Shown: one piece after another, positions 19,511-20,360 of the stretch
How the letters are laid out: every line of letters begins with the position of its first letter
Numbering within the stretch: the stretch's first letter is position 1
Origin: a virus
Lineage: Duplodnaviria; Heunggongvirae; Uroviricota; Caudoviricetes
Reading direction: 5' to 3' (one strand)
IMG/VR virus record: IMGVR_UViG_2563366975_000004
DNA: 35,452 bases
Notes under the pieces: generated by a model
Seen by the model: the letters and a program-made list of their open reading frames with translations, nothing else
What the model was told of the DNA's origin: nothing
The model's database searches: none
Translations under genes and position numbers: made by a program

Positions 19511-19689
19511 TGTTTCTGGTGGTGATGGTGGACTTCAGCAGCCGGATAATGTCGGTGCTGTCTGATGGTGTTTTGGTGGCGGGTGTGTGGTTGTTGCTTT
19601 CCCGTTGCTGAAAAAGAAAGCATCAGGCGATTAGCAGGGTATCAGTTACCCGTTGAAATTTTTAAATACCTCACAATTCCACAGCTTGA

Positions 19690-19890
19690 TGATTGTCTGG
19701 CTGCCGGAGAATTTGTTAAAAATTACATCGCATGGTGAATCCCCCTCAGCGGCGGGGCATCTGGCAAAGTGTATGATCCAGAGAACATGCAAATTCAGTA
19801 GACAGGCTGAATTTACCGGGAGGCCCCTGGCACCATGCGACAGACAGAAATTAGGCTATACTTCAGCCCCTCTCCGGAGGGGCTTTTCTG
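19690..19890 (+). ncRNA. Structured non-coding element, copy 1, ending in intrinsic terminator (candidate sRNA)
   Basis: Shares blocks attgtctggc, tttgttaaaaa, cgcatggtgaatccccct, accgggaggc.cc.ggcaccatgc and terminal hairpin gcccctc-tccg-gaggggc + T-run with copy 2; an internal hairpin shows compensatory changes between copies. Confidence 0.4.
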
Positions 19891-20077
19891 TGCAGGATGT
19901 GTCACAGTTTCCTGAATTCTGAGTACTGTCCTGTTACTCAGGGTGCTATATTTTCTGACGTGATGAAAGTCTGCCGGAAGGCGGAACGTATCGGAAATGA
20001 CCCAGTAGAGAAAACGTTGACTCAGATACCGATGCTGAGTTACCGGGAAACCGGCATCACATGACCGCTATCCTTCC

Positions 20078-20100
20078 AGGCTCGCTCCGGCGGGCCTTTT
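20078..20100 (+). terminator. Hairpin plus T-run (terminator-like)
   Basis: ggctcgc-tccg-gcgggcc (one G-U pair) followed by TTTTT. Confidence 0.4.
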
Positions 20101-20159
20101 TACTGCAGAAAACAGTTTTCCCGTAAAATGCCACGTTGCTCATAATTCAGGCTGGCGAT

Positions 20160-20360
20160 TATTGTCTGGCCGGCGGGAAGTTTGTTAAAAAATTTCGCAT
20201 GGTGAATCCCCCTGTGCGGAGGGGTAATCAGCGAGTAGGTATATGGGATAATCGCGGATTCAGGTGCTGGTACTGAATTCACCGGGAGGCACCCGGCACC
20301 ATGCAATGGCACATAGCGCCACTCTCCAGCCCCTCTCCGGAGGGGCTGTTTATATTGATT
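20160..20360 (+). ncRNA. Structured non-coding element, copy 2, ending in intrinsic terminator (candidate sRNA)
   Basis: Paralogue of copy 1; terminal hairpin gcccctctccggaggggc at 20329..20346 followed by tgtttatattgattttg. Confidence 0.4.

Follow-up and report, generated by a model that had tools for sequence, protein, structure and literature searches.

A head-to-tail array of three STnc100-family small RNA genes with an apparently pseudoknotted 5′ domain in a lambdoid prophage

The viral record IMGVR_UViG_2563366975_000004 (IMG/VR; 35 452 nucleotides, analysed at its full length and referred to here as the window) holds a lambdoid prophage, and its region 19670–20357 is a head-to-tail array of three genes of the small RNA (sRNA) family STnc100, each with its own terminator. 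They are called units A, M and B. An earlier note on this DNA had flagged two paralogous structured noncoding elements at this position as candidate prophage sRNAs. The family identity of the flagged elements is near certain, and they are not new: both are prophage sRNA genes of the STnc100 family, unit B being essentially EcOnc05 of Escherichia coli O157 Sakai. STnc100 is a curated Rfam family with repeated reports from enterohaemorrhagic E. coli (EHEC), so the implied novelty fails. Other members of the family are EcOnc06 and EcOnc27 (sRNA103); PasD1 and PasD2 of enteropathogenic E. coli (EPEC) form a more distant sister group. Extrapolating from these homologues, the array probably encodes trans-acting, Hfq-associated sRNAs in which the variable tail would serve as the seed and the conserved 5′ domain as a scaffold.

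Units A and B were assigned with the Rfam model RF02076 (STnc100), and both passed its gathering score (47 bits, full model). Unit A was matched at 19700–19893 (138 bits, E = 1.5e-30) and unit B at 20169–20357 (132.5 bits, E = 3.8e-29), in each case over model positions 1–206; since both span the whole model with E values near 1e-30, their likeness is not due to chance. Between GCATGG and the terminator their identity is 72.5%. Alignment of 19660–19910 with 20130–20380 located all of the shared blocks quoted in the note (attgtctggc, tttgttaaaaa, cgcatggtgaatccccct and accgggaggc.cc.ggcaccatgc) in both. The terminal hairpin GCCCCTC-TCCG-GAGGGGC was found to be identical by reading of the sequence and by a terminator scan, as had been claimed; the T-run said to follow it is TTTTCTG in unit A but weak in unit B (CTGTTTATATT). 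On comparison with the EHEC prophage sRNAs, unit B, taken from GCATGG through the terminator, agrees with EcOnc05 in 152 of 156 positions, and one base differs between the two cores. The reverse complement of the EcOnc06 Northern probe matches unit B at 20239–20273 with one mismatch, and published STnc_100 quantitative PCR primers (PMC12370729) match exactly inside it. The U-tract of unit B is degraded (TGTTTATATT), and this copy is without the convergent AgvB/AsxR partner of the EHEC copies.

Each unit contains a structured core closed by helix P1 and holding the hairpins P2, P4 and P5 (coordinates are given in Table 1). Both flagged units are real, but there are three in tandem: the supposed divergent spacer between A and B is a third copy, unit M, with its own terminator at 20078–20097. 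A permissive Rfam scan of 19400–21000 matched it to STnc100 at 19929–20104 (model positions 1–206, 30 bits, sub-threshold), with E = 3e-4 in that scan and 5e-5 in a local scan. All helices are retained in M via compensatory changes. P2 is UCUGCC-GGAA-GGCGGA, compared with CCCCU-GUGCGG-AGGGG for A/B; P4 is UGACUCAG/CUGAGUUA against GGAUUCAG/CUGAAUUC, and P5 is CCGG-GAAA-CCGG against CCGGG-AGGCA-CCCGG. The terminator stem also differs by compensatory changes from the GCCCCUC-UCCG-GAGGGGC of A and B, the UCCG loop being common to all three, and the minimum free energy (MFE) of the M core corresponds to z = −3.5. M-type units are present in 673 of 5426 complete E. coli genomes (12%). They go unannotated throughout and come as two variants (∼100 and ∼91% identical). 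In the 91% variant of UM146 a U replaces the C of the P1 C·A mismatch of the window copy, P2 carries a double compensatory change and one linker–loop pair becomes a wobble. Among 128 family-member loci, M is flanked by two canonical units in every case that contains it, and these X-M-Y triples were found at 15 loci (A-M-B, six; B-M-EcOnc27-like, eight; B-M-B, one). The locus is thus an array of three genes, the units starting near 19670, 19899 and 20138.

Homologues for the analysis of the fold were collected by a two-anchor pattern scan of IMG/VR, which yielded 120 loci, 37 distinct cores and 75 distinct full elements; the pattern fixed parts of the core, so that the apparent invariance of the core is inflated. 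A 15-base pattern scan of genome contigs gave only chance matches in unrelated phyla, and loci L007–L126 were excluded as noise. For the pair counts 40 non-redundant core sequences were aligned, and a helix between the linker that follows P2 and the loop of P4 was considered together with the Rfam-like helices. With these partners 93.5% of cells were paired, compared with 35–44% when the partners were slid, and 12 pairs showed changes on both sides, a number reached by none of 500 shuffles. In P4 five of the eight pairs are compensatory (98.7% paired), and in the linker–loop helix all six pairs are doubly changed. P1 is uninformative in the canonical set because the search pattern fixed both of its strands; it is informed solely by M, PasD and a DicF-adjacent copy described below, and it covaries both in the DicF-adjacent copy and in M (UM146 variant, AUGUGAUG/CAUCACAU). 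The units thus show the STnc100 consensus fold, with closing helix, hairpins, terminator and covariation. This covariation lies in helices other than the internal hairpin for which the earlier note had claimed pairing-preserving differences. In the Rfam alignment that hairpin has the same four C–G pairs in both units, and the fifth pair is U–A in B and a U/C mismatch in A; the difference is not compensatory and therefore gives no evidence of selection on structure. The nested fold returned by RNAalifold for the 40-core alignment, in which CCCC pairs with GGGA of P5, was set aside because the Rfam-like helices together with the linker–loop helix fit the covariation much better. The MFE folds of the long forms of A and B contain a predicted leader–tail helix, of which the Rfam consensus shows just a short CUG/CAG helix.

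The complementarity of linker and P4 loop is class-specific. The respective strands are AUCAGC and GCUGAU in the class of unit B and EcOnc05/06, AUCAGUAC and GUACUGAU in the L177 class, CUGGUG and CACCAG in the EcOnc27 class, UCUGGC and GCCAGG in the A-type class, UAUCGG and CCGAUG in the M class, AAAUGAUC and GAUCAUUU in the PasD class and CAGUUAA and UUAACUG in the DicF-adjacent class. Among 720 permutations across six independent classes the matched assignment alone comes out best (−52.3 kcal/mol; the best derangement reaches −29.0 kcal/mol), and shuffled loops equal or beat the matched pairing in 0.05–2.5% of trials per class. The pairing is a pseudoknot because its 3′ partner sits within the apical loop of P4. 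The layout of this loop (2–3 nt, 6–7 paired nt, 0–1 nt) is a kissing-loop geometry, so that P4 and the linker–loop helix could coexist, though they may instead alternate; the nested MFE fold of unit M prefers the linker–loop helix to P4. The conserved 5′ domain therefore appears to fold into a pseudoknot through the linker and the P4 loop. The pairing, of which no earlier description was found, is absent from the nested consensus as printed by cmscan, and neither a pseudoknot nor a covariation analysis is mentioned in the preprint by Zhu et al. (2026) on STnc100/PasD. A rare subclass in IMG/VR (L130 and L137) has the nested helix GAUACCA...UGGUAUC in place of the pseudoknot, followed by the small hairpin GAACA-UUU-UGUUC; this topological variant could help to test the fold.

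The STnc100 5′ domain is not confined to sRNA genes. A permissive window-wide scan located a fourth, core-only STnc100-like domain at 5256–5403 (−) (35.6 bits, below threshold), directly 3′ of DicF (5415–5466) and ∼87 nt upstream of isrK (5099–5175) and C4 (4987–5074). All helices and the linker–loop pairing are retained in it with a different sequence, and unannotated relatives are present in 4637 of 5426 E. coli genomes. In K-12 MG1655 (NC_000913.3) a matching domain (34.4 bits; locus L248, about 856–986) fills the dicF–dicB intergenic region of the Qin prophage and stops ∼20 nt before the dicB ATG. To our knowledge, the dicF–dicB leader has not been described as a structured element. Both the leader and the DicF-adjacent domain share P1, P2, P4, P5 and the CAGUUAA/UUAACUG pairing with the family and score 34–36 bits on its model, with about 53% identity to the unit B core. 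They differ from the units in consisting of the core only, with no dedicated promoter, tail or terminator, and in lying inside a polycistronic mRNA upstream of an open reading frame (ORF). The DicF-adjacent core and unit M both fall below 47 bits, and the structural results suggest that the Rfam threshold undercounts the family. It is conceivable, at somewhat less than an even chance, that the STnc100 core is an undescribed pseudoknotted RNA module of lambdoid phages, employed both as a programmable sRNA scaffold with recombination-swapped tails and as the leader of the mRNA for the cell-division inhibitor dicB in most E. coli, K-12 included. In that case the module would have a defined function of its own, for example 5′-end protection or the binding of a specific factor.

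Discrete Hfq-associated transcripts are documented for homologues of the units. Tree et al. (2014) reported 55 Hfq-crosslinked sRNAs in the O157 Sakai prophages and convergent sRNA pairs in the moron slot downstream of PR′ (PMC4104026). In our Rfam scan the Sakai STnc100 matches coincide with EcOnc06 (Sp17), EcOnc27 (Sp5, just after stx2B) and EcOnc05 (Sp4), and the Northern probes of EcOnc06 and EcOnc27 map within their respective matches. Peaks in Hfq cross-linking and analysis of cDNA (CRAC) and Northern blots were reported for EcOnc05 (∼222 nt), EcOnc06 (∼177 nt) and EcOnc27 (∼235/247 nt), the 247 nt form of the last being destabilized without hfq, and a Northern size of ∼187 nt was given for EcOnc13 (PMC4104026). 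In strain EDL933, 11 STnc100 copies were listed, with RNA-seq reads for all and Northern verification of one (PMC5331693). EcOnc27 is the same RNA as sRNA103, overexpression of which raises fimZ and espA transcripts by an unclear mechanism (PMC7873438). PasD1 and PasD2 were found with many targets by Hfq RIL-seq, in which interacting RNAs are ligated and sequenced (PMC8550237), and Zhu, Shabalina and Storz (bioRxiv 2026) described structural homology between STnc100 and these EPEC RNAs and proposed a common ancestry. The kinship was confirmed here: PasD scores 38–41 bits on the STnc100 model and occupies the same slot after a DUF3927 gene. Taken with the STnc100 matches, the discrete, Hfq-bound state of near-identical EHEC homologues (PMC4104026) supports the description of the elements as paralogous structured noncoding prophage sRNA genes.

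Alignment of the family shows a near-invariant 5′ domain broken by a single hypervariable insert, then a tail, lying between P1 and the terminator, that varies strongly, and several alternative terminators. Identical cores are paired with at least six unrelated tails, which points to modular exchange, and the swappable part measures ∼12–26 nt. The unit A tail resembles that of EcOnc27/sRNA103, and units M and B have yet other tails. The PasD seed UGUGAG, as predicted from its targets in RIL-seq, is located in the tail, and the EcOnc27 Hfq peak covers tail and terminator after offset correction. The peak coordinates of Tree et al. were found to be ∼137 nt off NC_002695.2 near Sp5, with AsxR as the anchor, and for this reason peak positions were used for EcOnc27 alone.

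Two conserved versions of the upstream flank were recognized among the homologues. The PasD/EcOnc06 type carries TTGA(C/T)T and TATTAAAAA ahead of the PasD start, which was mapped by RNA-seq to the G of GCATGG (GCAUGG in the RNA). Type I (units A and B, EcOnc05 and EcOnc27) carries TTGTCT...TTAAAA, with a further block CTCA(C/T)AATTC upstream. The blocks attgtctggc and tttgttaaaaa lie upstream of the structured domain, outside the core fold, and, by homology with PasD, may be −35/−10-like promoter elements or part of a 5′ leader; the upstream block of unit A has no consensus −35. Computed lengths from GCATGG to the U-tract are ∼156 nt for EcOnc05, ∼171 nt for EcOnc27, ∼160 nt for EcOnc06 and ∼172 nt for PasD. 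Comparison of these values with the Northern sizes fits a type I start ∼46 nt upstream of GCATGG, just after CACAAT/CATAAT, from which units A and B would measure ∼206 and ∼200 nt, near the unit limits given in the earlier note, with possible short forms of 160 and 156 nt.

In the proposed mechanism each RNA has three modules: the compact 5′ domain, closed by P1 and carrying the hairpins P2, P4 and P5 and the linker–loop pseudoknot; the variable single-stranded tail of ∼12–26 nt; and an intrinsic terminator that is rich in GC and has a U-tract. Transcription in the lysogen would start, for each unit, at a weak σ70 promoter of its own and stop at its own terminator. The products, RNAs of ∼145–206 nt, would associate with Hfq through the terminator and tail region and base-pair in trans with host or prophage mRNAs or sRNAs, the tail acting as the seed, so that three copies with three tails may address three target sets. 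The 5′ domain would serve as a stabilizing scaffold and would not confer specificity. In lytic growth, RNA polymerase modified by Q would pass all three terminators. Family membership, fold, covariation and modularity were observed here, and close homologues have been shown to be expressed and to bind Hfq; where transcription starts, the seed function of the tail, the scaffold role and every target are inferred.

Several points weigh against this mechanism. The transcript evidence comes from homologues (EcOnc05/06/27 and, by RNA-seq and Northern blot, the EDL933 copies). No STnc100 member has a validated direct target, there being just the fimZ and espA changes with sRNA103 (PMC7873438). In RNA-seq under activating conditions, PasD showed no significant change between the hfq mutant and wild type (log2 fold changes of +0.55 and −0.18), so Hfq dependence may be weak. 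For several EDL933 STnc100 copies the ribosome-footprint coverage is above 1 (1.5–3.2; PMC5331693), a minor caveat. The linker–loop helix of unit A in the window carries a mismatch (−3.2 kcal/mol). A consensus σ70 scan of the window returned no promoter on the plus strand; the promoter assignments accordingly come from PasD homology and Northern sizes, the 5′ ends are uncertain (long, ∼200–206 nt, or short, ∼156–160 nt) and the long forms could be processed from upstream transcripts. That the 5′ domain is so extremely conserved and is used again in the leader of the dicB mRNA suggests that it may have a function of its own beyond that of a scaffold, 5′-end stabilization being one possibility.

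This last point leads to the view that the 5′ domain itself is the functional part, as a protein- or RNA-binding module or a cis-acting mRNA stabilizer or leader, that the sRNA genes are one use of a module which serves the dicB mRNA as leader as well, and that the tail is incidental; this view is judged to be rather unlikely. The core is near-invariant across homologues while its surroundings vary, a core-only relative lies 3′ of DicF and the same domain forms the dicF–dicB leader in K-12 (4637 of 5426 genomes); moreover, P1 of PasD closes the very first nucleotide of the RNA, and the hfq mutant shows no significant change in PasD abundance. The invariance is, however, inflated by the search pattern, no binding partner of the domain is known, PasD has many Hfq-dependent partners by RIL-seq with its seed in the tail, and the tail swaps between identical cores look like diversification of specificity. 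The units have also to be considered as a cis-acting stack of three intrinsic terminators that insulates the lysis genes in the lysogen from transcripts of the tRNA genes or non-antiterminated PR′ transcripts and is overridden by Q, the RNAs being by-products. Three serial hairpins on the late-gene strand between Q (16782–17603) and the lysis genes would suit such a stack, as would the co-orientation of the units with the late operon in the window, in Sakai Sp4/Sp5/Sp17, in UM146 and at the PasD loci of E2348/69. A terminator needs only ∼30 nt, however, which leaves a covarying 110 nt domain and the conserved upstream blocks unexplained, the homologues accumulate as abundant Hfq-bound RNAs and the U-tract of unit B is weak. 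This explanation is distinctly unlikely by itself, although termination in cis could hold alongside an sRNA role.

It is very improbable that the units are ligand-dependent, riboswitch-like or attenuator leaders of the downstream nanS-p-like esterase and lysis genes. A multi-helix domain with a terminator upstream of co-oriented genes is the classical layout, and the similar arms of P2 (CCCCU..AGGGG) and the terminator (CCCCUC..GAGGGG) could in principle exchange. Nevertheless, the downstream neighbours of STnc100 copies are unrelated (another STnc100 unit, convergent AsxR/AgvB, iraM on the opposite strand or a holin gene), and the units have neither a constant downstream gene nor a conserved antiterminator pairing; the terminator module is swapped independently of the core, and the P2 variant of unit A weakens the hypothetical antiterminator pairing. 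The alternative pairing with the terminator has no covariation support, and a P2/terminator arm-exchange switch was dropped from consideration on that ground. An equally slight chance is given to the units encoding small peptides (MVNPP...) from the AUG inside GCAUGG. This AUG (core position 3) does open a short ORF in all canonical copies, the ribosome-coverage values of 1.5–3.2 for several EDL933 copies (PMC5331693) would agree with translation and the Prokaryotic Genome Annotation Pipeline (PGAP) places pseudo coding-sequence fragments here, albeit on the opposite strand. The reading frames across the units are nonetheless tiny and not conserved, as the earlier note had stated: the peptides range from 8 to >39 residues, have unrelated, frame-shifted C-termini and share just the first 5–9 residues, which overlap P1/P2. 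The cores are 103–127 nt long and their differences in length are not divisible by three; none of the ORFs across the units matched Pfam, helix P1 buries the AUG and the compensatory RNA changes in the M variants would cause radical amino acid replacements. No frame is thus conserved among the homologues.

The anti-sRNAs AgvB and AsxR (GcvB or FnrS sponges), which had been put forward as candidate names, belong to the right neighbourhood and are the wrong element. They resemble the units in being prophage-encoded, Hfq-binding and situated in the same moron region, and in Sakai both abut STnc100 copies: at Sp17 (L004, 1587–1839) and Sp5 (L005, 1923–2182) STnc100 and AgvB/AsxR stand tail to tail with no gap between the Rfam matches. 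Their models RF02702 and RF02703 (51–60 nt RNAs with a shared 42 nt 3′ region) nevertheless matched nothing in the window with any of the thresholds used (E up to 10 locally and 0.05 window-wide), while both were positive in the Sakai control loci. The sequence and fold of AgvB and AsxR are unrelated to those of the units, and they lie on the strand opposite to the STnc100 copy. The reading is refuted at the level of family identity and retains virtually no probability.

Among known systems, EcOnc05, EcOnc06 and EcOnc27 are the closest, with the same helices and terminator as units A and B and the same Q-to-lysis slot downstream of the ileZ–argN tRNAs. The examined Sakai loci, however, hold one unit each and the window three in tandem, the window has no convergent AgvB/AsxR and unit M is below the family threshold. 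PasD1 and PasD2 (EPEC E2348/69; EcOnc13 in EHEC) share the slot right after the DUF3927 gene, the start GCAUGGUGAAUCC, the helices, a linker–loop pairing in a sequence of their own (AAAUGAUC/GAUCAUUU) and the association with Hfq. They differ in their single TTGACT-type promoter with a start at the G of GCAUGG and in their sequence (54–57% identity to M and B), and the seed UGUGAG is missing from A, M and B; identity at the BLAST level is likewise lacking, so the kinship is structural only. Adjacent paralogous Hfq-dependent sRNA genes, each with its own promoter and terminator and with conserved and variable parts, are familiar from OmrA/OmrB, PrrF1/PrrF2 and Qrr1–5, in which the conserved part is the seed or the Hfq module and the variable part lies elsewhere. 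The window units, in contrast, conserve a large 5′ domain and vary the putative seed; there is no homology and the comparison is one of analogy.

Table 1. Features of the sRNA array and of the neighbouring genes in the window.
Feature	Position	Strand	Sequence or remark	Basis
Unit A, candidate upstream −10	19672..19677	+	CACAAT, within block CTCACAATTC kept in type I members	Predicted
Unit A, long-form 5′ leader	19684..19729	+	TTGTCT 19693–19698, TTAAAA(A) 19716–19722	Flank alignment, PasD homology
Unit A, structured core	19730..19838	+		Rfam alignment, MFE fold, pair counts, linker–loop classes
Unit A, P1	19730–19737/19831–19838	+		
Unit A, P2	19742–19746/19753–19757	+		
Unit A, P4	19791–19798/19807–19814	+		
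Unit A, P5	19816–19820/19826–19830	+		
Unit A, linker : P4 loop	19760–19765/19801–19806	+	UCUGGC : GACAGG, one internal mismatch	
Unit A, variable single-stranded tail (candidate seed)	19839..19864	+	GACAGACAGAAAUUAGGCUAUACUUC	Predicted
Unit A, intrinsic terminator	19865..19889	+	AGCCCCTC-TCCG-GAGGGGCT, then TTTTC	Terminator scan, Rfam alignment
Unit M, putative extended −10	19944..19952	+	TGcTATATT; predicted start ∼19959	Read from sequence, aligned with family −10
Unit M, divergent core	19958..20065	+		Full-length STnc100 match, MFE z = −3.5, UM146 compensatory changes
Unit M, P1	19958–19965/20055–20062	+	One C·A mismatch	
Unit M, P2	19970–19975/19980–19985	+	GGAA loop	
Unit M, P4	20018–20025/20035–20042	+		
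Unit M, P5	20043–20046/20051–20054	+	GAAA loop	
Unit M, linker : P4 loop	19989–19994/20029–20034	+	UAUCGG : CCGAUG	
Unit M, short tail and terminator	20066..20102	+	CGCUAUCCUUCC; AGGCTCGC-TCCG-GCGGGCCT, then TTTTT	Terminator scan (20078–20097)
Unit B, candidate upstream −10	20141..20146	+	CATAAT, block CTCATAATTC; predicted long-form start ∼20153	Predicted
Unit B, long-form 5′ leader	20153..20196	+	TTGTCT and TTAAAAAA (alternative internal promoter)	
Unit B, structured core	20197..20304	+		Rfam, EcOnc05 comparison, EcOnc06 probe, fold, pair counts
Unit B, P1	20197–20204/20297–20304	+		
Unit B, P2	20209–20213/20220–20224	+		
Unit B, P4	20256–20263/20273–20280	+		
Unit B, P5	20282–20286/20292–20296	+		
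Unit B, linker : P4 loop	20227–20232/20266–20271	+	AUCAGC : GCUGGU	
Unit B, tail and terminator	20305..20357	+	AAUGGCACAUAGCGCCACUCUC; CAGCCCCTC-TCCG-GAGGGGCTG, weak T-tract TTTATATTG	Rfam, terminator scan, EcOnc05 comparison
Q antiterminator	16782–17603			
Small hypothetical gene	Between Q and methyltransferase			
N6/N4 DNA methyltransferase	18178–19227			
tRNA-Ile(CAU) and tRNA-Arg(UCG)	19277–19436			
Truncated third tRNA	From 19448			
38-residue DUF3927 ORF	19495–19611			
sRNA units A, M and B	19670–20357			
iraM-like gene	20383–20718	−		
DUF1737/SASA esterase gene	From 20964		Interrupted by IS21-family element	

The Q-to-lysis moron slot proposed for the elements was confirmed by the gene order, which runs Q, DNA methyltransferase, two tRNAs, DUF3927 gene, A-M-B, iraM, esterase, holin and lysozyme, the last two being seen in a copy of the locus that is intact. 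The units run in the same direction as the late genes, and the setting is the same in Sakai Sp4, Sp5 and Sp17. A 1.75 kb stretch is 100% identical in many E. coli genomes; 3338 of the 5426 complete genomes show some match to this locus, and in 1012 the match covers at least 80% of it. The only PGAP annotation at the units is a pseudo coding-sequence fragment on the opposite strand. The tRNA at 19277–19352 was called tRNA-Met (CAU) by ARAGORN, whereas the identical gene in RefSeq is a tRNA-Ile (ileZ, presumably lysidine-modified); together with the next tRNA it forms the ileZ–argN pair typical of Shiga toxin and lambdoid prophages. Positions 19448–19490 are the 5′ half of an argO-like tRNA-Arg UCU, which agrees fully with Sakai argO over 37 nt before diverging; it is truncated in the anticodon loop and followed by the 38-residue DUF3927 ORF. 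UM146 and similar relatives have an intact argO and no DUF3927 gene at the corresponding spot. The iraM-family anti-adaptor gene (NCBIfam NF007393, 162 bits) lies in A/T-rich sequence that separates unit B from the esterase gene; this moron could affect RpoS stability. In the region 20964–23912 the nanS-p-like esterase gene is broken after ∼230 codons by the IS21-family element on the minus strand (IstB, 21661–22416; IstA, 22413–23912), and in NCCP15648 it is intact (1857 bp). Elsewhere in the window a hok/sok-type toxin–antitoxin RNA (sok, 106.7 bits) was matched at 14577–14748 (+) and a weak isrK-like sequence (27 bits) at 14910–14991 (+).

The flagged finding rediscovers a curated family already labelled by annotation tools, Bakta among them; members have been observed on Hfq in EHEC and, in the case of the sister group PasD, in EPEC. 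The family matters nonetheless: STnc100 is among the most abundantly annotated sRNA families (PMC9029176), matches to the locus occur in 3338 of the complete genomes counted above and single-nucleotide polymorphisms predictive of haemolytic uraemic syndrome map to EcOnc27, the copy beside stx2 (PMC12711010). What this analysis adds, namely the third copy, the pseudoknot, the modular tails and the relative in the dicB leader, is modest but can be tested. A covariation-supported pseudoknot, a scaffold with a swappable tail, a cryptic M subfamily in 12% of genomes and a related domain in the dicB leader of K-12 provide experimental handles. If the STnc100 core is indeed a reusable pseudoknotted module, A-M-B would represent three specificities on one scaffold, including a cryptic M subfamily missed by current annotation.

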